This document shows positions 5,928-61,908 of a DNA stretch of 64,000 bases, one piece after another. The position numbers were made by a program, and so were the translations under genes. The notes beneath the pieces were generated by a model that worked only from the letters and a program-made list of their open reading frames with translations, was not told the origin of the DNA and searched no databases. Source of the stretch: an uncultured Bdellovibrionales bacterium (GTDB lineage: Bacteria; Bdellovibrionota_C; UBA2361; OMII01); NCBI GenBank assembly GCA_964413875.1, contig CAYPUA010000007.1, positions 45,139-109,138 of the forward strand. Direction: 5' to 3'. The first letter of the stretch is position 1. The number at the start of each line of letters is the position of its first letter.

Positions 5928-8729
5928 TCACCGCACGGGGACAGCGTCCGAGGGCGGCGGGGTTTTAGCTGTCGGGCAGCCAGCAATTATCCTCTGAACT
6001 ACCGTAGCAATCTCACTAACGAGCGGTGCTGTCGGTTCGTTGGGGTTAGTCTTAGCCAGTTTTTCAAGATTTCCACAGAGCTCGCTCAATTCGGGATAAC
6101 CGTATAATCCAGCGCTTCCACGAAGTCGGTGGGCGAGAGACGCTAGCTTCGCGGAATCTCGGCTGTTAGCTGTAGCCTCGAGCTCCGAGAGTTTCTCTGG
6201 CAGTTTGCCGACAAACTCAATCACCAGAGGAAGAGTGTCGTCGTCCAGAAGATCTTTAGTTGTGAGGATAGGTGTGGCTGGAGAGCTGTCTTGAGGTGCT
6301 GGGAGCGTGGCAATGGGCAGAAACCGTTCGAGCATCCCTGAGAAGCCTTCCTTGCTAAATGGCTTGCTGAGGTGCATCGAGCAGCCGGCGTCGATCGCTT
6401 TTAGGATATCGCTCGTCATGGCGCCGGCAGAGAGGGCTACGATTGGGGTCTTGATTCCGGCTTGGCGAATTGCTCGGGCTGCAGACAGTCCATCGACGTG
6501 AGGCATCTGCACATCAAGGAGTATAAGATCGAACGTATCTTTCAATGCAGCGTCGACTGCTTGCTGGCCATCCTCGACAAGGGTGGGCGAAACCCCGGCT
6601 TTCTCGAGGAGATGGTTGACCAGTCGTCGATTGTCGAGGGCATCGTCAGCAAATAAAACTTTTCCTGAAAATGTTTTCGGGGGACTTGCGAGGGGGGAAG
6701 CTACCTGCTCAGAGGGGACCTCGTTGATAAGGCTGTCATCGGCTTCGATGCTTGGAGAGAGCCAGAACTTGAAGGATGAGCCCTTTCCTGGGGTGCTGAC
6801 CACCGAGATGTCTCCTCCTAGCGCATTCGCGAGGCGGCGGGAGATGCTCAGGCCTAGGCCGCTTCCCCCGTACTGGCGCGTAATCGACTCGTTTGCCTGG
6901 AAGAAGGGACGGAACAAGAGTCGTGACTGGTCTTCTGAGATCCCGATCCCAGAGTCGGTTACGGTGAAGAAGATCTGGCCGGCGGATTTGTCGTACTCGA
7001 CTTTCAGCTCTATCCATCCGCGAGAGGTGAACTTAATCGCATTGCTGAGGAGATTGATGAGGACCTGCTTGACGCGAAGGGGATCGGTGGTGATGTGCCC
7101 GGGGAGCGGCCACTTGTACTGTACCGAGAAAGATAGGGCCTTCTCGGCGATGCGCGGCGCAAACATGGTGCGAACTTCTTCCACGAGCTGTACCAGGCCG
7201 AAACTTCTCTTCTCGATTGTCAGGGCGCCTGCGTCAATCTTCGAGAGATCGAGTATTTCGTTGATAATGTCGAGAAGGTGTTGGCCATTGTTGAGGATAA
7301 TCTCAAGTGTGTGGAGTCGGTCGGGTTCGGCCGATAGGTCCTCGCGCAGCGATTCGGCGAAACCGATGATAGCTGTCAGGGGTGTTCGGATTTCATGGCT
7401 CATGTTCGCGAGGAACTGGCTCTTGGCGTGCATCGCGGTCTCTGCTGCCTGCTTCGCAGCTAGAATTTCCGCGTTTGCTATTTTGAGTTGAGTGATGTCC
7501 TCAACGGTTCCTACCCAGCCGCTCACAGTGTCTGTTGAATTTATGGTTGCAGCTTTCACGGAGCACCAGGAAATAGATCCATCCGGCCGCTTGTAGCGGT
7601 GTGTTTCCTCGAAGGGCACTGTCGATCGCATCGCCGACTGCCAATTTTGGCTGACTCGTTCGCGGTCCTCCTCGGCTACTGCTCGAAGCCATCCTGAACC
7701 GAGGCTCTCACCAACCATTTGCCCTGAGATGCGCTGAAACTGGTGGTTTGTGTAAATGAAATTGCCGCTTGAGTCTGTGACGAAAATCCCGAGGGGAGCC
7801 GCTTCGCTTATGGCACGGAAGCGTGCTTCGTTGCTGTGAGTTGAAAGCTCTTCTTCGATTCTGCTGCTTAGGTCGACGCACGAAGAGACGTATGCCTCTA
7901 GTCGCCCCGAAGACGAGAAGAGGGGCATAGACTGTTCGAGCACCCAACGGTAGGTGCCGCTCGCATGGCGAAGGCGGAACTCTCGCTGAAATCGCCCGGA
8001 TTTCGCAGAGGCGTTTTTCCATTCTTTGTCGTAGCTCTCTCGATCGTCAGGGTGCAGGGTGTCCTTCCAACTTTCACCGAGGCTGTCTTCCTGGCTTAGG
8101 CCGGTAAATTCACACCATGCGGAATTGAAGAAGGTGCGATTCCCTGCCTGGTCTGATATCCACATGAGAATTGGTGATGCATCAGCTATGAGCCGAAATC
8201 GCCGCTCGGTTTCGCCGAGAACATCTATCGTTGTCTTTACTTTGAGGAGCTGCTGTCGGAGCTCCATTTGCAAAACAGCCTGTCGTGCGAGGGATCGCAA
8301 TGCAGCTTGCTGCGCTCCCGAGAGGGTACGCGGCTTATAATCCATGATACACAGCGACCCGATTGCAAAGCCGTCATTCGTAATGAGAGGAGCGCCGGCG
8401 TAAAAAACAATTGATGGGTCAGCCGCTACGAACTCGTTGGCCGCAAATCGGGAATCTTTCCGAGCATCCTCTACGATCAGCATCTGCTCTGAGAGAATTG
8501 TCTCGGAGCAGAAAGCAGACGAGCGATCCGTAAATGGGCGCTCGAAACCGATTCGGGCCTTGAACCATTGTCGGTGCTCATCGAGCAGGGAAATCAAGGC
8601 TATCGGGACCTGACAGATATCCGCGGCAATAGACACGATCTCATCGAACGCGGCCTCCGGCTGCGAGTCGAGGATCTCTAGCCCCTTAAGCCGCGTAACT
8701 CTCTGACGCTCATTTCCCGGAAGCCTCAT
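5928..8729 (-). CDS. Hybrid sensor histidine kinase / response regulator with GAF, PAS, HisKA, HATPase, REC and C-terminal Hpt domains.
   Basis: N-terminal GAF; PAS repeats; H-box HEIRTPLTAIIGFAESL; ATPase G-boxes DSGIGI and GGSGLGLSI; receiver VLFADDALDNRRL...DLILLDVQMP; C-terminal Hpt HRLRGSAGLYGYPEL. Confidence 0.85.
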   Translation of the reverse strand: MRLPGNERQRVTRLKGLEILDSQPEAAFDEIVSIAADICQVPIALISLLDEHRQWFKARIGFERPFTDRSSAFCSETILSEQMLIVEDARKDSRFAANEFVAADPSIVFYAGAPLITNDGFAIGSLCIMDYKPRTLSGAQQAALRSLARQAVLQMELRQQLLKVKTTIDVLGETERRFRLIADASPILMWISDQAGNRTFFNSAWCEFTGLSQEDSLGESWKDTLHPDDRESYDKEWKNASAKSGRFQREFRLRHASGTYRWVLEQSMPLFSSSGRLEAYVSSCVDLSSRIEEELSTHSNEARFRAISEAAPLGIFVTDSSGNFIYTNHQFQRISGQMVGESLGSGWLRAVAEEDRERVSQNWQSAMRSTVPFEETHRYKRPDGSISWCSVKAATINSTDTVSGWVGTVEDITQLKIANAEILAAKQAAETAMHAKSQFLANMSHEIRTPLTAIIGFAESLREDLSAEPDRLHTLEIILNNGQHLLDIINEILDLSKIDAGALTIEKRSFGLVQLVEEVRTMFAPRIAEKALSFSVQYKWPLPGHITTDPLRVKQVLINLLSNAIKFTSRGWIELKVEYDKSAGQIFFTVTDSGIGISEDQSRLLFRPFFQANESITRQYGGSGLGLSISRRLANALGGDISVVSTPGKGSSFKFWLSPSIEADDSLINEVPSEQVASPLASPPKTFSGKVLFADDALDNRRLVNHLLEKAGVSPTLVEDGQQAVDAALKDTFDLILLDVQMPHVDGLSAARAIRQAGIKTPIVALSAGAMTSDILKAIDAGCSMHLSKPFSKEGFSGMLERFLPIATLPAPQDSSPATPILTTKDLLDDDTLPLVIEFVGKLPEKLSELEATANSRDSAKLASLAHRLRGSAGLYGYPELSELCGNLEKLAKTNPNEPTAPLVSEIATVVQRIIAGCPTAKTPPPSDAVPVR

Positions 8730-8782
8730 CCCCTCATCCCCCTACCATCCCTATCGGCGCCCGCACCCACCCCCTTAAGCAA

Positions 8783-8804
8783 GTTCTCAGAGAGTTCGCG
8801 ATCG
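8783..8804. repeat. REP-like palindromic repeat, copy 1 (GTTCTCAGAGAGTTCGCG).
   Basis: Shares the TTCTCAGAGA core, with flanking CGCG/CGAA arms, with copies at 8876, 9406 and 11347. Intergenic. Confidence 0.5.
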
Positions 8805-8875
8805 CACTAAGATGTAATGGATACACCATGTTAGTCTGCCTAGCGGATAGTGTGTGCTGGGGGTACCCAACAGCA

Positions 8876-8900
8876 GCGCGAGTTCTCAGAGAGTTCGTGG
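8876..8900. repeat. REP-like palindromic repeat, copy 2 (GCGCGAGTTCTCAGAGAGTTCGTGG).
   Basis: Near-identical to copy 1 and 93 bp downstream of it, in the same hybrid-kinase/trmL intergenic space. Confidence 0.55.
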
Positions 8901-8939
8901 TGGGGTTCGTGGTGGGGCTCGTAATCGAAACGAGAGGAG

Positions 8940-9398
8940 TTACCTATCGAGGGCTAGCTGACGCCTCGCCTCATACAGGGCTATGGCGACGGCGTTGCTG
9001 AGATTGAGACTGCGCACGTAGTCCGTAATGATGGGTATTCGCAGGATTTGGGACTCAGGGAATTGACCGAGGAAAGCCTGTCCTAGCCCCTTGGTTTCAC
9101 TTCCGAACACTAGGGCATCGGTGGGACCGAAAGCCGCATCGGTATAAAGCCGCTCTCCAAACTTCGAGAAAAGCCATATCTTCCCTGGTCTCGACTGAGA
9201 GATGTAATCCTCCCAAGACTTGTGCTGTGCCAGTTTCACGAAGGGCCAGTAGTCGAGGCCGGCACGGCGCACTGCTTTCTCCGTGATCTTAAAACCCATG
9301 GGTTCAATGAGGTGGAGAGGGGTGTCCGTAGCTGCGCACGTTCGGGCAATCGACCCGGTGTTTTGAGGTATTTGAGGCTCTACTAAAACTATCTCCAC
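8940..9398 (-). CDS. trmL: tRNA (cytidine34/uridine34-2'-O)-methyltransferase TrmL (SpoU family, short form).
   Basis: MEIVLVEPQIPQNTGSIARTCAATDTPLHLIEPMGF aligns with the E. coli TrmL N-terminus. 152 aa. GTG start. Confidence 0.8.
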   Translation of the reverse strand: MEIVLVEPQIPQNTGSIARTCAATDTPLHLIEPMGFKITEKAVRRAGLDYWPFVKLAQHKSWEDYISQSRPGKIWLFSKFGERLYTDAAFGPTDALVFGSETKGLGQAFLGQFPESQILRIPIITDYVRSLNLSNAVAIALYEARRQLALDR

Positions 9399-9405
9399 AC
9401 GACAC

Positions 9406-9429
9406 CACGAATTCTCTGAGAGAACGCGC
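9406..9429. repeat. REP-like palindromic repeat, copy 3, in inverted orientation (CACGAATTCTCTGAGAGAACGCGC).
   Basis: The reverse complement, GCGCGTTCTCTCAGAGAATTCGTG, matches copies 1 and 2. Lies in the trmL-fpr intergenic region. Confidence 0.55.
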
Positions 9430-9497
9430 TTTTACATAAAAGAAAGAATTGTGGCGATAGGGTTCATTTTTATGAATCAGGACGGTATATTGGGAGC

Positions 9498-10271
9498 ATG
9501 TTGAACTCAACTGTAGTAGGCAGAATAGATGTGACTCCGGAGCTTATGATCCTCCGAGTTCGTCCGGATGATGGTGTTCCCAATTTTGTTCCGGGTCAGT
9601 ATGTGGCGCTGGGCATGCTAGGGGGGACGCCCCGATATCCGGGTGCGGCTCCAGAAGCAGAGGCTCCAGCCCCAGATAAATTAATTAAGCGGGCGTATTC
9701 CATCGGCTCGTCCCCGGAGCAGAGAGATTATCTAGAGTTCTACATAGCGGTTGTTCCGACGGGCATTCTCACTTCACGACTTGCAACGGCTAAGGAGGGA
9801 GATCGCGTATTTTGTCAGCCTAAGGTGACCGGAACTTTTACCCTTGATGGTGTTCCACCTGATAAAAATCTCGTGCTTGTCTCAACTGGCACTGGACTTG
9901 CGCCCTTTATGTCGATGGTTCGGACGTCAAGCACATGGTGCTCAAGTCGTCGAATAACTGTGATTCATGGAGTAAGATATCCGGAGGACTTCGCTTACTC
10001 TGATGAGCTGCGCCTACTCGAGACTTCCACGCAGAGCCTAGAATATCTTCCGATTGCCAGCCGGGCAGCGGAAACCTGGATAGGGCGAAAAGGGCGGGTC
10101 CAGAAGCTCTTCGACGATGGAACAGTGAAATTAAATCCCCAAATGGACCACGTTTTCCTCTGTGGAAACCCGGCCATGATAGAGGAGCTTGAGGTTAACC
10201 TCACGGAACAGGGCTTCCAAGTTCACTCCAAGAAGTCTCCGGGAAATCTCCACATAGAAAAGTATTGGTAA
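9498..10271 (+). CDS. fpr: Ferredoxin--NADP(+) reductase (FNR/Fpr family, FAD/NAD-binding).
   Basis: Motifs KRAYSIGSSP (RxYS FAD-binding) and VLVSTGTGLAPFMSMV (NAD(P)-binding). ~257 aa. Confidence 0.8.
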   Translation: MLNSTVVGRIDVTPELMILRVRPDDGVPNFVPGQYVALGMLGGTPRYPGAAPEAEAPAPDKLIKRAYSIGSSPEQRDYLEFYIAVVPTGILTSRLATAKEGDRVFCQPKVTGTFTLDGVPPDKNLVLVSTGTGLAPFMSMVRTSSTWCSSRRITVIHGVRYPEDFAYSDELRLLETSTQSLEYLPIASRAAETWIGRKGRVQKLFDDGTVKLNPQMDHVFLCGNPAMIEELEVNLTEQGFQVHSKKSPGNLHIEKYW

Positions 10272-10283
10272 GCGGTACTCGGT

Positions 10284-11267
10284 TTACGGGCCGTTTTGAA
10301 AGCTGTTGGCAGGGTGTCCCTTATTCGCCGAGGCGGGAGGATCGGAACCGCCGAACAGCAGGGGCAGGAAAGTCCCAGCAGGGAAACGAACCTTGCGATC
10401 TCCCTGCCGGTATCGGCGTGACGCGTCGATGTACTCCTGTAGGATCGAGAAGTACCAAGCTCGGTATTCGGCCCGTCTTTTGTGATCCACTGAGAGAATG
10501 CGGGGACGGTGCGAATATCGACTGCTGGTTTTCGTAGAGACCGGGAGCGAGCCGGGCTGGATAGTCAGAAGCCGGTCGCGCCCCATGAATGATAAACCCG
10601 CATTCAAACGGTCTGCGACGATTTTTTGTCGCCTCACTTCAAGCTTTTGCATCATCATCTTGGCGTAAGCAGCTTGCGACAGCTTCTCATAGCCCGGCAA
10701 TCGCTCATACTTCAGGGTGATGTAGTGCACGTAATCGTCGAAGCGAATAGACTTGTTGTATCGTTTTGCGGAATTGTACCCCGCCCAATCTACTACGGTA
10801 AATCTTCGTTTCATTCCCCAGATCGCATCTCGAAAGCAGTTGTACCCCGGGTAGTCGGAGAGCTGTTGGACTAGTCCATCCTTTACTGGCTGAAGAACTG
10901 TGTAGAAAAAGTACTCCTCAACATCCTCGGGCGCGGGCATCAGCTCAACAGAATAGCGACGTCCCCACAGAGGACCACCAGGGAAGTTCGGAACGAGGCG
11001 GCGGACGCTGCGGGCGATGCACGAATTTAGGTCACGCATGAAAGCCGCTCGGTTGAGGCCGGGGAAGTCCGCCACGCAATGCGTGTGATTGCCTTCGATG
11101 GCGAAGGCATAGAGCTTTATGTCGTAGCGGGCAGCAAACTTTCCCACGTAACCCAAAATCGCATTCTCGAGAGGTCGGTTATTTACGAACCAGAGCTCCG
11201 AATTGCGGCAGCGAGTCGTGATGAATGATGTCAGATCTGCAGTTTCTATTCTTGGATGATAACTCAT
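10284..11267 (-). mobile_element. IS200/IS605-type Y1 (HUH) transposase-domain protein, RAYT-like, with a ~200-aa C-terminal extension of unknown function. The likely start is MSYHPRIE.
   Basis: The N-terminal ~130 aa are collinear with IS200 TnpA: HPRIE, a HuH-like motif AIEGNHTHCV, and GPLWGRRYSVE. Local GC is visibly lower than the flanks. REP-like repeats lie on the flanks and nearby. Confidence 0.65.
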
Positions 11268-11346
11268 ACCCTCTAATTCGAGGGTCCCGCTCAGGAGTTG
11301 CGGGAGGCACCAGAAAGATAGCCCCAAAGTATCTTCGCAAAAATCT

Positions 11347-11371
11347 CCGCGAATTCTCAGAGAACTCGCGG
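11347..11371. repeat. REP-like palindromic repeat, copy 4 (CCGCGAATTCTCAGAGAACTCGCGG), followed by a second partial palindrome at 11377-11392.
   Basis: Almost perfectly self-complementary. Lies 80 bp upstream of the RAYT-like start, between it and the fadD-like gene. Confidence 0.55.
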
Positions 11372-11396
11372 CGCCCCAGAGCTCTCTGAGAGGGCG

Positions 11397-13289
11397 CTAG
11401 TAGAGGACGGAAATTAGACCGAGATGGCGGGCGGTGATTTGGCGGCGGCGCATTTTTAGGGTTGGGGTGAGAAGCCCATTCTCGACTGTGAAGTCCTCGT
11501 CCGCGATGCAAAAAGCTTTGATGCTCTCGTATGTTGCGAGGTTTTCGTTAACTTTGTTCACGGCATCCTGCAGCATCCCTCGGACTGCCGACATCTCAGA
11601 GAGTTTGTGGTCTGGGGGGACGGGGATGCCGGAGGAGGTTAGGAGGCTGCGCAGCTCGGGTTCGTTCAGTGTGAAGAGCATTACGCAGTACGGGCGACCC
11701 TCGCCGTACAGCAGTGCATGAGAGATGAACGAGAATCGCTTGAACTGCCCCTCTACGGCGGTTGGTGGAATCTTTTTTCCTCCGGCCGTGATTACCAGCT
11801 CTTTCTTCCGGTCGGTGATAAAGAGAAAGCCATCTTGATCGACCGCTCCTACGTCGCCCGTGTGGAACCAACCGTCGGCGTCCCATGAATCCGCCGTGGC
11901 TTTGGGGCGGTTGAGGTATCCGCGGGTTACGTTGGGGCCTCGAAGCAGTATCTCGCCGTCCTCCGAAGAGATCTTTGTCTCAACACCCTCGAATGCTGGC
12001 CCCACGCTCCCAATCCTTCGCCGAGTTGGGCGATTTACATGGGTTGCCACACAGGTTTCCGTTAAGCCGTATCCCTCGCAGATCGTAATTTCAAGCGAAT
12101 CGAAGAACTTATTGACTCCAGAATCAAGCTTCGCGCCGCCCGATATCGCATGGGTGAAGTTAACTCCGAACAGCTCTCTTCTTATCTTCCGGCGAATAGG
12201 CTGGAGCCCCTCGAATAGAAGGTGTTCTAACAGACTCAGGGGCTTACCGGTGCTCCGGCGCTCGTACGTGGACTGAGCGTTAGAAAGACAGAGACCTAGA
12301 ATTCGTTGCTGCAGGCTCTTGCCCGCAGCTCGGGCTTGGAGCGCCGCGGACATCTTCTCGAACAGGCGCGGCACTGAAGGGACTACCGTCGCCCCACATT
12401 CTCTGAGGTCTCGCGCTACGGAGGAGAGGTCGATGCGGGAGGTGCGGTGGTCGGCTACGGAGGGGAGGATGAGGTGGGCCGAGGTGAGGCAACCGACGTA
12501 GTGTATGAGTCTGGCGAAGGAGTGGGCGAGGGGGAGATATAGGAAGAGGGTGCCGTCGCCTGGGAACACCCCGCTCTTGGCGGCCTGGTCGACATTTGCG
12601 AGATGATTGCCGTGCGTTTGCACCACACCTTTGGGTGGGCCCGTAGTGCCTGAGGTGTAAACGTACGACGCAACGGAATCGCGGCCTATCGACGTTGGGA
12701 TCGGTGGCGCATCCGCGGAAAGCGACGAATCGTTCCACACATCGGCTAGGCACTGCACAGAGGGCGAACCGTGTATTCGCTCGAAAGAGATCACAGCATC
12801 AATCGGCACCCGCACGGTGGACTCTGGATGGTTCTCGGTCGCTGGGAGGGGGCAATCATGGCCGCGAAGCCACTCTATCTTAGCGAGCTGCTCTTCGTTC
12901 TCGACGAAAACAATTCGCGCACCTGAGTCAGAGAGAACAAAGCCAGCATCAGCAGCGAGCTGGCTTTGGTACACACTCACCGTGATACCGCCCACCGTCT
13001 GGATCGCGAGATCCGCGAGGATCCACTCGCACCGAGTTTGGCTAATAATTGCGACCGGTGTCCCGACCTCAACACCGAGTGAGCGAAGAAGGTTGGCGAG
13101 TCGAGCTACCTTCGGAGCCGCCGATCTGTAGGACTCCTGCTTCCAAAGACGGGTGCCTTCAGCAGCGGGACTGTTGGCGTACCTAAAAAGTATCTCTTCC
13201 GGAAATGCCTGCGCGCGCCGCCAGAACGCCTCACCAAGCGAAGCGCAGGCAGCGACCGATTGCTGGATGTTGGAAGCAGGTGCAGTCAT
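11397..13289 (-). CDS. AMP-dependent long-chain acyl-CoA synthetase (FadD-like).
   Basis: AMP-binding motif YTSGTTGPPKGV plus TGD and a C-terminal ligase domain. 630 aa. Confidence 0.8.
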   Translation of the reverse strand: MTAPASNIQQSVAACASLGEAFWRRAQAFPEEILFRYANSPAAEGTRLWKQESYRSAAPKVARLANLLRSLGVEVGTPVAIISQTRCEWILADLAIQTVGGITVSVYQSQLAADAGFVLSDSGARIVFVENEEQLAKIEWLRGHDCPLPATENHPESTVRVPIDAVISFERIHGSPSVQCLADVWNDSSLSADAPPIPTSIGRDSVASYVYTSGTTGPPKGVVQTHGNHLANVDQAAKSGVFPGDGTLFLYLPLAHSFARLIHYVGCLTSAHLILPSVADHRTSRIDLSSVARDLRECGATVVPSVPRLFEKMSAALQARAAGKSLQQRILGLCLSNAQSTYERRSTGKPLSLLEHLLFEGLQPIRRKIRRELFGVNFTHAISGGAKLDSGVNKFFDSLEITICEGYGLTETCVATHVNRPTRRRIGSVGPAFEGVETKISSEDGEILLRGPNVTRGYLNRPKATADSWDADGWFHTGDVGAVDQDGFLFITDRKKELVITAGGKKIPPTAVEGQFKRFSFISHALLYGEGRPYCVMLFTLNEPELRSLLTSSGIPVPPDHKLSEMSAVRGMLQDAVNKVNENLATYESIKAFCIADEDFTVENGLLTPTLKMRRRQITARHLGLISVLY

Positions 13290-36319: not shown

Positions 36320-37774
36320 ATGAAGTCAGCCCTTTCCATCCTGCCTATTGAGGGCAGCCAGAGCCCGAGCTGTTCCTCGGTGGCCGTAAACATCAACGAG
36401 CCTCGCCCTCTTGACGGCAAGGTCTCGTTCGCCGGTCGTGCTGCAGTAGTGACGCTCGGCTGCGCCAAGAACCAAGTCGACTCCGAGGTGATGATTGGAG
36501 TCCTGAGGAACTCAGGATTCGAGATCGTCAACGAGCTTAACCGCGCCGATGTTGCGGTGGTTAACACGTGCGGATTTCTTGAGAGCGCCGTGAAGGAGAG
36601 TGTCGACTGTGTGCTCGAGCTCTCAGAGCTTAAAAAATCTGGCAGCCTTCGCAGGCTGCTCGTCGCTGGCTGCATGGTCGAGCGCTACAAAGGCGACATT
36701 CGCAAGGCACTGCCCGAGGTAGATTCTTTCATTGCCCTAGATGGGCTCTTGAGTGTGGGGCAGGCAGCTCTCGGAGCCGATGAGTCTCTCCGCGACATTC
36801 TTCACGAAGGTTCGCGGCCGTACTTTTTGTACGACGACACGATGCCGCGCCACCTCGCATCTCGGCGTCACATGGCCTACGTCAAGGTGTCAGAGGGATG
36901 CAACCGGCCGTGCGCTTTCTGCATCATCCCCCAGATTCGCGGCGCAATGCGCAGCCGCTCAATTGAGTCGATTGTGCGTGAAGTGCAGGCTCTCGGAGCA
37001 CAGGGAGTGCGCGAGATAAACCTGGTCGCCCAGGACCTCACTGCATTCGGAACGGACCGCTCGGAGAAGCTCGTCGATCTCCTGAAGAGCCTCGACCAGG
37101 CGAAAGCTGCTGCCTGGATCCGGCTGCTGTACGCATACCCGGTTGGAGTGGACGACGATCTGCTCTCAGCGATTGTCGACCTGCCCAGTGTCTGTGACTA
37201 TCTCGACGTGCCGCTCCAGCACTCAAGTGAAGAGGTGCTGCGTGCCATGAAGCGCCCTATCGGTCGTTTCGGCTCGCGTCGTTTCGTGGAGTACGTGCGC
37301 AGCAAGGCGCCCCAGATAAAGCTTCGCACAACTTTCATCGTCGGGTTTCCGGGCGAGACCGAGCAGGATATCAAGGACCTCGAGAGCTTCGTTGCTGATG
37401 GACACTTCGAGAGTGTAGGCGTGTTCACCTACTCGCCTGAGCCCGGGACAGCGGCTTGTGACCTAGAAGGGCAGGTGCCCGACAAGGAGAAGCGCGCTCG
37501 TCGCGATCGCGTGATGCTCGCGCAACAGAAAGTGCGCGTCGCTCGCAACCAGGAGTACGTCGGCAAGCGGCTTGAGGTGCTCGTCGAGGGGCCACACGAG
37601 GAGACAGACATGCTCCTGTCAGGCCGGGCTCGGTTCCAGGCTCCAGAGGTTGATGGGGTTGTGCTCATCAACGACGTTGCTGAGCAACTTGGCACAGTTG
37701 AGGCGGGGCACATCGGCCAGGTGGAGATCACCGAGATTTCAGGGTACGATCTAGTAGGAACGTTAGTCTCATGA
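36320..37774 (+). CDS. rimO: MiaB-family radical-SAM methylthiotransferase, most like ribosomal protein S12 methylthiotransferase RimO (MTTase N-terminal domain plus radical SAM plus TRAM).
   Basis: MTTase N-domain VTLGCAKNQVDSE...VVNTCGF; radical-SAM cluster motif CNRPCAFC; C-terminal TRAM-like beta domain. Confidence 0.75.
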   Translation: MKSALSILPIEGSQSPSCSSVAVNINEPRPLDGKVSFAGRAAVVTLGCAKNQVDSEVMIGVLRNSGFEIVNELNRADVAVVNTCGFLESAVKESVDCVLELSELKKSGSLRRLLVAGCMVERYKGDIRKALPEVDSFIALDGLLSVGQAALGADESLRDILHEGSRPYFLYDDTMPRHLASRRHMAYVKVSEGCNRPCAFCIIPQIRGAMRSRSIESIVREVQALGAQGVREINLVAQDLTAFGTDRSEKLVDLLKSLDQAKAAAWIRLLYAYPVGVDDDLLSAIVDLPSVCDYLDVPLQHSSEEVLRAMKRPIGRFGSRRFVEYVRSKAPQIKLRTTFIVGFPGETEQDIKDLESFVADGHFESVGVFTYSPEPGTAACDLEGQVPDKEKRARRDRVMLAQQKVRVARNQEYVGKRLEVLVEGPHEETDMLLSGRARFQAPEVDGVVLINDVAEQLGTVEAGHIGQVEITEISGYDLVGTLVS

Positions 37775-60852: not shown

Positions 60853-61908
60853 CTAGTCATCGAGGATGCTCCGCGGCAAGCCTTGGCGCACGTTGCTCGT
60901 ATAGTAGCTTGCGAGCTCTGCGCATTTCTCCTTGAGCCCCGATGCGCCCGGATTCTCCGGGAGCTTCACCATAAAACGGATGAAGAGATCGCCGCGGGAG
61001 CCGTCCGCTAGCCGCACGCCCTGGCCCTTGAGCCGCACCTCGTTGCCGCTCTGGGCTCCAGCCTCAACCGTAACGAGCAGCGGGTCGCCAAGCGACGGGA
61101 CCTGAATCTTGCCGCCCTGGATAGCCTCACTGACCGAGAGCGGAATCTCCATGGTGAGCCCCTTCGAAGTCATCGAGAGCCACGGATGATGTGCCACACG
61201 GATAATGAGAATAACCTCCTCGGTCGGGTCCTCCTTGCGGCGAAACCGGACGATACTTCCCGTTCGCACCCCTGGAGGGATGTGTGCCGAGATCTTTTTC
61301 GTTTCCCCATTCGGGTCTGTAAGTTCCACGGTGCGGCGGACCCCTCGAATAGCGTCGAAGATCGACACAGACACCTCCATCAGGGAGATGTGGGATACCT
61401 GAGTCCCAGCCTGTTTGGCTTTGCCTCCCCGCCTCAGGAGCCGATTCTTTAGCGATGAAAGCTTGCTGCGCGAAGAAGCTGTTATCTCTGAGAAGCCGAA
61501 GCCCCGGCTCTCTTTTGGTTTTGTGCTGCTCTCGTTTTTAGCTGAACTGCTGCGAGCCTTCTCCTGCTCCTGAGCCGGATCCTTCTTTGGCGGCGCCTTC
61601 GGTCTTGGGCTCTCCGACTCTCGCGGTGTGCCTTGCGACTTCTGTTGCCTACGGTACTCACGGTGAGCGCGGTCGAAGGCTGAGGAGAAAGACTCTCGGC
61701 TCTTCTCAAGTTCAGCGTCGTACTGCTGCCGCTGGGCTGGGTCCGACAGCACTGCGTATGCCTGCGCTATCCGCTTGAAGGTCTCTGCGTTCGACTCGCC
61801 TGGGTTGAGGTCTGGGTGGTAGCGGCGCGCCAGGATTCGGTACGCCCGGCGTATCTCCTGAGCCGTGGCCGCACTGTTGACCCCCAACGTTTTGTAGTGG
61901 TTGCTCAT
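60853..61908 (-). CDS. DnaJ-class co-chaperone, CbpA-like (J domain plus DnaJ C-terminal beta-domains, no zinc-finger domain).
   Basis: J domain YKTLGV...RRYHPDLNP (HPD motif); Lys/Pro-rich linker; C-terminal DnaJ_C-like domains. Confidence 0.75.
   Translation of the reverse strand: MSNHYKTLGVNSAATAQEIRRAYRILARRYHPDLNPGESNAETFKRIAQAYAVLSDPAQRQQYDAELEKSRESFSSAFDRAHREYRRQQKSQGTPRESESPRPKAPPKKDPAQEQEKARSSSAKNESSTKPKESRGFGFSEITASSRSKLSSLKNRLLRRGGKAKQAGTQVSHISLMEVSVSIFDAIRGVRRTVELTDPNGETKKISAHIPPGVRTGSIVRFRRKEDPTEEVILIIRVAHHPWLSMTSKGLTMEIPLSVSEAIQGGKIQVPSLGDPLLVTVEAGAQSGNEVRLKGQGVRLADGSRGDLFIRFMVKLPENPGASGLKEKCAELASYYTSNVRQGLPRSILDD

Follow-up and report, generated by a model that had tools for sequence, protein, structure and literature searches.

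A Y1 HUH gene accompanied by an oriented motif with a palindromic core in a Bdellovibrionales genome: a probable REPtron/TIRtron-type system

The locus and its repeat copies

The DNA analyzed here is a stretch of 64,000 nucleotides (nt) from an uncultured Bdellovibrionales bacterium (GenBank assembly GCA_964413875.1, contig CAYPUA010000007.1, positions 45,139 to 109,138 of the forward strand), referred to below as the window. Our subject is a gene for a Y1 HUH protein that resembles the REP-associated tyrosine transposases (RAYTs; REP, repetitive extragenic palindromic element) and the related TIRYTs, together with a short repeat whose four copies are distributed over three spacers between a hybrid kinase gene, trmL, fpr, the Y1 gene and an AMP-binding gene. 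A sequence-only reading of the window had taken the two for a RAYT and its cognate REPs. With 80 additional loci fetched for comparison, the core of the repeat was counted over 83 homologous loci; fetched loci are labelled L001 etc. The features of the window locus are as follows, with the repeat copies named A to E and the E-values taken from an nhmmer profile search.

5928-8729, minus strand: hybrid kinase gene
8779-8804: repeat copy A, core at 8785-8793, 51 nt upstream of the kinase start (E-value 5.3e-6)
8871-8905: repeat copy B, core TCTCAGAGA at 8884-8892, in the trmL-kinase spacer (E-value 1.6e-8)
8893-8916, plus strand: arm duplication beside copy B, GTTCGTGGTGGG twice in tandem, read from the sequence
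8940-9398, minus strand: trmL
9400-9434: repeat copy C, core TCTCTGAGA at 9413-9421, in the divergent trmL/fpr spacer (E-value 2.7e-6)
9498-10271, plus strand: fpr
10284-11267, minus strand: Y1 HUH (RAYT/TIRYT-like) gene, 327 amino acids (aa)
11343-11376: repeat copy D, near-perfect palindrome CCGCGAATTCTCAGAGAACTCGCGG, core at 11355-11363 (E-value 1.8e-7)
11377-11397: degenerate copy E, CCCAGAGCTCTCTGAGAGGGCGC, core at 11383-11391, three mismatches to the search pattern (E-value 0.07)
11397-13289, minus strand: AMP-binding gene

Two independent searches recovered the repeat family. A degenerate 19-mer, CGARYTCTCWGAGARYTCG, allowed up to two mismatches and run over the whole window, matched only at 8780, 8879, 9408 and 11350; the chance expectation is 0.03 matches, and four were reached in none of 100 shuffles. 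A profile made solely from the repeat copies of related genomes and then run on the window with nhmmer returned the same four sites with E-values from 1.6e-8 to 5e-6, copy B scoring best. It also gave two marginal matches, at 11594-11613 (E-value 0.006, inside the AMP-binding coding sequence) and at 11379-11392 (E-value 0.07), and no further credible copy in the 64 kb. The copies are indeed intergenic, all four lying between long open reading frames (ORFs), and their arrangement agrees with the sequence-only reading, the copies at 8780 and 8879 being direct and that at 9408 (copy C) inverted relative to them. The second half-palindrome that had been noticed after the copy at 11347 is the marginal match at 11379-11392; the corresponding degenerate copy E abuts the stop codon of the AMP-binding gene, and a full copy is found at the orthologous position in L004, L009 and L010, immediately past the stop codon.

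The earlier statement that the core occurs nowhere else in the window holds for the pattern and for the profile, but an additional exact TTCTCAGAGA is found at 61485 on the minus strand, which is probably a chance occurrence because it lies within a 361-aa ORF. Core matches at 36614, 55901 and 61485 were considered as repeat copies and taken as chance, all of them being within long ORFs. The marginal match at 11594-11613 is a look-alike, CGACATCTCAGAGAGTTTGTGG, about 200 nt before the AMP-binding stop, with similar sequences at the orthologous coding site in L001-L007; it could be either a chance occurrence or an old copy absorbed into coding sequence.

Palindromy, which had been ascribed to the repeat in general, is pronounced at one copy only. 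Copy D (11347-11371) forms the sole strong hairpin among the four copies (-8.9 and -10 kcal/mol, z -2.9 and -3.3). The copies at 8877 (copy B) and 9405 (copy C) fold weakly and on one strand each: copy B on the plus strand via G.T pairs (-4.9 kcal/mol, z -1.8) and copy C on the minus strand (-4.3 kcal/mol, z -2.0). Copy A is a half-site, whose left arm is non-complementary and whose hairpin is no better than those of shuffles. We also considered a strand-specific hairpin, with G.T pairs on one strand and A.C on the other, and rejected it: among 35 tabulated copies both polarities occur, and variable positions merely stay purine or pyrimidine, so that there is no consistent hairpin strand.

Copy D lies in the spacer upstream of the Y1 gene, 80 nt from its start and 20 nt from the AMP-binding stop; L004, L009, L010, L016 and L018 hold copies in this spacer as well. 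Together with a T-run, AGATTTTTGC, that comes after it on the minus strand (window 11337-11371), it scores as terminator-like for the AMP-binding gene. Since the T-run lies on the strand of the upstream gene, this copy may double as a terminator of the AMP-binding gene, and it may overlap the Y1 promoter region. One could generalize from this copy, and from several others located just past stop codons, that the palindromes are intrinsic terminators or mRNA-stabilizing hairpins independent of the neighbouring gene. We regard this as highly improbable: a T-run is present at only one of the four window copies, one copy is located in a divergent promoter spacer and another is unfolded, a shared 19-nt sequence would be expected only 0.03 times by chance, and the enrichment of the motif beside Y1 homologues described below would be left unexplained.

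The base composition of the Y1 gene, which had been described as visibly low, does not set it apart. Its GC content is 0.539 versus a window mean of 0.582, and the three neighbours on one side are about equal or lower (kinase 0.550, trmL 0.542, fpr 0.514); its GC content at third codon positions is 0.613, the same as in the neighbours. Foreign origin of the gene on this ground was therefore dropped. The divergent trmL/fpr spacer (9399-9497) is AT-rich, with a GC content of 0.414 against 0.582 for the window, the embedded repeat copy excepted. No Rfam family matches within 8500-11700.

The Y1 HUH protein and its family

The ORF at 10284-11267 matches the Pfam profile Y1_Tnp (PF01797) with 27.3 bits against a cutoff of 23, which bears out its assignment to the Y1 HUH proteins. 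Its Y1 core comprises residues 1-150, with the HUH motif H61-T-H63 and the tyrosine motif Y122-T-V-L-Q126-P, and is followed by a family-specific C-terminal extension of about 155 aa (residues 150-305). The closest solved structure in both sequence and fold is that of the RAYT TnpA_REP (4ER8), in which Y122 is aligned with Tyr115, the catalytic tyrosine. All 42 family sequences compared share H61, Y122 and Q126. The second histidine of the HUH motif, at position 63, is H in 17 of the 42 and Q in 25; HUQ motifs are active in circovirus Rep proteins. The 327-aa protein is thus a Y1 HUH enzyme with a RAYT fold and an intact predicted active site (H61-u-H/Q, Y122, Q126). Against the NCBIfam RAYT model REP_Tyr_transpos (NF047646) it scores 43 bits, below the cutoff of 80. 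The HUH region of the family reads NH[IT][HQ] and the W motif W[GA]RRY, and no helix-turn-helix (HTH) or DnaA_C-like domain was detected in the C-terminal half.

At least 706 full-length homologues of about 310 aa were identified, mostly in metagenome-assembled genomes (MAGs) of Bdellovibrionota, Oligoflexia-like and SAR324-like bacteria. Most of them are annotated as hypothetical, and some JGI records label members 'RayT' through COG transfer. The C-terminal half occurs only in the Y1 architecture (224 clusters at 50% identity), in line with the proposal that the extension marks a distinct subgroup. No match to the family was found in 72,556 plasmid or 50,697 phage records, and our literature search found no paper on this Y1 family or its motif, including for Bdellovibrio-like bacteria.

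Motif and gene across homologous loci

The core TCTCWGAGA is concentrated at the Y1 gene. Over the 83 loci it occurs 4.2 times per kb in the 150 nt that precede the gene and 3.4 times per kb in the interval 150-300 nt beyond the gene match, its density falling to 0.3 per kb at 0.6-1.5 kb from the gene and to 0.05 per kb beyond 1.5 kb, with 0.01 per kb inside the gene; this makes the core about 80-fold denser beside the gene than more than 1.5 kb away. The motif as a whole is about 35 nt long and consists of an outer arm of about 12 nt, the palindromic core, and an inner arm, which is CCGCGCG-like in most lineages and ACTCGYGG in the window lineage. It is often tandemly iterated, and its frequency falls with distance from the gene. 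Upstream copies, 49-150 nt from the start, carry the core TCTCAGAGA, with A at the centre, followed by a CCGCGCG-like arm (50 of 51), and downstream copies, 105-293 nt past the stop (median about 210), have the inverted orientation CGCGCGG-TCTCTGAGA, with T at the centre (33 of 33). Distant homologues (52-60% identity) are found in unrelated gene contexts, yet they possess TCTCWGAGA elements on both sides of the gene.

Because this orientation is nearly absolute, the element conserved family-wide is an oriented motif flanking the gene as inverted repeats, not a hairpin. The hairpin potential beyond the core is modest upstream of the distant homologues (mean z -0.85) and absent downstream (about 0); therefore, full palindromy is a lineage-specific elaboration, found in the window lineage and a few others (L049, L057). 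The copies of the window lineage look like REP palindromes because both of their arms became complementary. A conserved small ORF or RNA in the spacer of about 200 nt between stop and motif was considered and rejected: these spacers are unalignable between lineages, and open frames in them are common to very close relatives only.

The outer arm of the motif is frequently duplicated. Among the outermost copies of distant homologous loci it is tandemly duplicated in 19 of 50, the corresponding figures being 3 of 50 for the inner side and 5 of 2500 for shuffles. The duplications have a period of 10-16 nt and usually start at the last GA of the core, that is, between TCTCWGA and GA; they are found in the window at 8893-8916 and in L049, L050, L057, L059, L060, L099 and others. 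In tandem arrays the outer match is constant at 11-13 nt. The outer-arm duplications may be a footprint of the point at which nicking and joining occur.

L015 (9921-16526) contains six copies of a variant motif, ATATCGCGGTCWCTGAGA, in 6.6 kb, with one inverted copy upstream of the Y1 gene and five copies downstream sharing one orientation. Of these five, the one at 11569 falls within a called gene, and the other four occupy the spacers immediately preceding successive genes of the same strand. The same locus (L015 1-6570) includes a Zorya-like defence set (ZorA-like, OmpA-like, EH_Signature, SNF2/Mrr_cat) 3.5 kb upstream of the Y1 homologue, an association that is probably incidental.

In the window lineage the gene and its surroundings are stable. 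Relatives with Y1 proteins of 94, 81, 69 and 68% identity keep the gene order AIRS, AMP-binding, Y1, fpr, trmL, kinase, the Y1 gene having thus been located between the AMP-binding gene and fpr since divergence to about 68% protein identity. In these relatives, the palindrome is present in the same three spacers (L004, L009, L010, L016, L018) and nowhere else in 15-21 kb, with varying copy number and spacing; copy C is kept in its spacer despite diverged flanks. The Y1 identities are comparable with those of the neighbouring genes (91-98, 78-85, 68-77 and 67-84%, respectively), and the dN/dS ratio of the Y1 gene is 0.089 versus 0.077-0.149 for the neighbours. The gene is under purifying selection and appears to be inherited vertically with its neighbours, and it is not mobile on the visible timescale. 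With the fpr stop codon only 12 nt away, the 3' end of the window gene lacks a repeat of its own; the 3'-flank copy is displaced beyond fpr. Neither the window nor any of the fetched loci contained a Y1 paralogue, and ORFs of about 310 aa beside dispersed repeats, considered as candidate paralogues, proved unrelated by tblastn.

Elsewhere in the family the gene appears to have moved. The units of L086 (5939-7127) and L099 (5933-7131), which are located on different large contigs of the same metagenome (Ga0214921), share 97% protein and 87% nucleotide identity, and those of L093 and L096 share 96% and 92.5%. In both pairs there are no flanking genes in common and homology ends at the downstream motif. 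The presence of near-identical units in unrelated contexts suggests that the unit moved or was transferred in some sub-lineages and, therefore, that the family is not uniformly immobile. With homology stopping at it and with its duplicated arms, the motif behaves as a recombination end. Both sub-lineages have further peculiarities. No canonical upstream motif is found in the L086/L099 sub-lineage. L096 (1585-2290) has a tandem repeat of some 360 bp that corresponds to L093 816-1175 and covers the Y1 3' end and the downstream spacer to the motif, giving three motif copies, and the core variant of the L093/L096 sub-lineage is GTCTGAGA, not TCTCTGAGA.

These apparently mobile units raise the question of whether the system is an ordinary insertion sequence (IS), that is, a transposase gene between terminal inverted repeats, of which the window would hold an old, partly decayed copy and the other repeats would be solo ends or resemble miniature inverted-repeat transposable elements (MITEs). 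Such an element would account for the single ORF between inverted motifs, each some 20 nt long, whose distances vary little and which delimit a unit of 1.2-1.4 kb or so, for the near-identical units in unrelated flanks whose homology ends at the downstream motif, and for the differing gene contexts of distant homologues. However, IS200/IS605 Y1 enzymes, as known from ISfinder, use direct-orientation subterminal hairpins and not terminal inverted repeats, whereas the repeats here are inverted. Compared with IS200/IS605 TnpA (IS608, PDB 2VHG), the protein is also about 310 aa long rather than about 150, has no tnpB partner, and its gene has a stable context in the window lineage. Only one gene copy is seen in the window and in every fetched locus, unlike in a multi-copy IS. 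The conserved gene order, the neighbour-like divergence from 94 to 68% identity and the dN/dS of 0.09 also argue against an ordinary IS, as do the missing 3' repeat of the window gene, with fpr and trmL intervening before the next copies while the active site is intact, and the absence of family matches from the plasmid and phage collections. We therefore consider an ordinary IS quite unlikely; it is an unlikely description of the window copy and a fair one of the family's origin.

Copies of the repeat are also found away from the Y1 locus in related genomes. A single scan of a genome collection with a strict 21-nt pattern, which catches about 40% of the known copies and was run on incomplete MAGs, gave matches on 6, 5, 2 and 2 contigs in four MAGs of Bdellovibrionota or 'Deltaproteobacteria'; four singletons in unrelated taxa were taken as chance. 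Two of the four MAGs carry a 94%-identical Y1 locus, and their other matches are 33-35-nt palindromes with the consensus CCCCACCACGARYTCTCWGAGARYTCGTGGTGGGG. The dispersed copies are intergenic, often form doublets 30-180 nt apart, include one site between convergent genes (L019 and L033), and never adjoin a Y1 paralogue. Most of these sites are orthologous between the two close MAGs. In the MAG CANLJX01 two scan matches represent one site at overlapping contig ends: L023 (1-435) and L030 (1-435) overlap by 435 bp with 99.3% identity in opposite orientation and share one palindrome copy. The overlap is due either to the assembly breaking at the repeat or to duplication of the segment, and site counts from the MAGs are uncertain on this account. 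REPs typically exceed 100 copies per genome, and the copy number here is apparently far below that; on present evidence, the repeat family seems to be dispersed but low in copy number.

The placement of the copies suggests another possibility, namely that they are double-stranded operator or promoter sites for a dimeric regulator, either the Y1 protein acting through its C-terminal extension or an unlinked factor, that controls the kinase gene, trmL/fpr and the Y1 gene. All window copies are upstream of starts (51 and 150 nt from the kinase start, in the trmL/fpr spacer, and 80 nt from the Y1 start). They are kept in the same spacers to 68% protein identity while their flanks diverge, the upstream copies of the whole family are confined to a narrow 50-150 nt from the start, the copies of L015 are just upstream of four successive genes, and it is a sequence, not a hairpin, that is conserved. 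Regulation does not readily explain the copies between convergent genes (L019, L033), where no promoter is expected, or the fact that the motif follows the Y1 gene whatever its neighbours, inverted on both flanks and about 200 nt past the stop. Operators do not typically show tandem iteration or arm duplications, the dispersed copies are GC-rich palindromes of 33-35 nt, none of the window copies is overlapped by a sigma-70-like promoter, and invariant catalytic residues would be needless for a pure DNA binder. We regard such operator sites as the main rival explanation and an unlikely one.

Relation to known systems and proposed mechanism

Quentin et al. (2018; PMC6006769) described 12 subclasses of TnpA_Y1 proteins, none of which combines NH[IT][HQ], W[GA]RRY, Y-T-V-L-Q-P, a length of about 310 aa and flanking repeats. 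The family shares the Y1 HUH fold with the RAYT/TnpA_REP proteins of REPtrons (E. coli YafM, PDB 4ER8; Nunvar 2010, Ton-Hoang 2012, Bertels 2017, PMC5581495). It is similar to them in that only one gene copy is seen in the window and in each fetched locus, in its purifying selection and apparently vertical inheritance in the window lineage, and in repeats that flank the gene in inverted orientation and are also found, frequently as doublets, at other genomic sites. The differences concern both partners. REPs are defined by a GT[AG]G (or CGTC) foot (PMC6006769, PMC3733652), and class 2 RAYTs, whose REPs carry the GT[AG]G foot, have Y---NP (PMC6006769). In contrast, the repeats of the window family are without a 5' GT[AG]G foot, GTGG being found only inside the stem of CCCCACCACGARYTCTCWGAGARYTCGTGGTGGGG, and what is shared family-wide is an oriented motif whose palindromic core measures 9 bp, not a stable hairpin. 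The proteins have Y---QP instead of Y---NP, W[GA]RRY instead of WQ, Q in place of the second HUH histidine in 60% of members, an extra conserved C-terminal region of about 155 aa, and a score below the cutoff of the NCBIfam equivalog model (43 versus 80).

The TIRYT/TIRtron systems of Di Nocera et al. (2013; PMC3733652), which combine a RAYT-like gene with inverted repeats, some of them self-complementary, and whose repeat families are moderately abundant and occur in dimers or clusters, describe the arrangement better than the classical RAYT/REP pair. Like the present family, they have inverted repeats at fairly constant distances, partly or wholly self-complementary and moderately abundant in dimers or clusters, and proteins that are longer than RAYTs through C-terminal additions. 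However, the repeat consensus here is TCTCAGAGA with CCGCGCG, not GGGGWSAS. TIRYTs largely belong to subclass 2.1 (PMC6006769), which has YIELNP or Y[IV]HLNP where the family has YTVLQP, and the HTH or DnaA_C-like C-terminus was not detected here. Class 3 TnpA_Y1 proteins (Planctomycetes, Acidobacteria and Proteobacteria), described as intermediate between IS and REPtron (PMC6006769), are similar in their atypical flanks without GTAG, W[TA]-like W motif and Q-type tyrosine motif. By their description they differ in Y----Q (Q at +5), NHVH, a length of about 178 aa, the lack of a large C-terminal region and a CnGA foot.

Taking these comparisons together with the distribution of the motif, the locus is probably a REPtron/TIRtron-type system built around a previously unclassified TnpA_Y1 subfamily. 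An apparently single-copy gene amid repeats that accompany the family wherever it is found looks like an undescribed branch of tamed transposases. The initial identification as a RAYT with cognate REPs is thereby retained in part: a Y1 HUH protein near TnpA_REP, repeats that follow the family, and dispersed copies are all found, whereas the GTAG foot is absent, the tyrosine motif is Y---QP, the NF047646 score is below its cutoff, and the copy number looks low.

Several observations weigh against assigning the locus to such systems. Hairpin potential, which is central to recognition by RAYT and IS200 enzymes, is absent from most downstream copies and weak upstream. The strict pattern gives only about four extra loci per MAG, and the window has none outside the 2.6-kb cluster. 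Mobile REPs do not usually show copies that stay at orthologous spacers through long divergence, a pattern that would fit a selected regulatory site. The second HUH histidine is replaced by Q in 25 of the 42 members, and the proposed link between protein and motif is one of association across genomes.

In such a system the enzyme would bind the motif and use Y122 to cut and religate a single strand at the core or adjacent to it, in the manner of TnpA_REP acting on REPs. It would thereby create, duplicate and occasionally disperse copies, preferably near the gene. In the window lineage, the gene would then survive as a domesticated, immobile enzyme.

A more specific proposal, which we put forward tentatively and with clearly less confidence, is that the family represents a distinct, unclassified TnpA_Y1 class, characterized by Y---QP, HuH or HuQ, and a module of about 155 aa wrapping the core. 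In this class TCTCWGAGA would be recognized instead of a GTAG hairpin and nicked in or beside the core, and the window enzyme would be immobile with a host role. A nick at this position is suggested by the arm duplications that begin between TCTCWGA and GA and by the constant outer arm of 11-13 nt. If the family is such a class, the window-lineage enzyme has lost its own 3' end and cannot move, and is still under housekeeping-level selection, along with a few conserved copies in intergenic DNA. This would imply a host-level role, for example in local control of transcription or termination, or in the processing of single-stranded DNA at the copies.

RAYTs are the textbook example of a bacterial transposase tamed by its host; to our knowledge, only the E. 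coli RAYT has been studied structurally. The system described here is new in its active-site signature, its C-terminal module and its family-wide core, and is not categorically new, being of the RAYT/TIRYT type. The family extends the classification of Quentin et al. (2018; PMC6006769), adds a new protein module, and provides a second clearly delimited and tractable model for domesticated Y1 transposases. The putative recognition core TCTCWGAGA is conserved family-wide, which would allow one substrate design for many orthologues. Finally, the family combines apparently mobile lineages with a clearly immobilized one, making it testable what is selected once such a gene stops moving.

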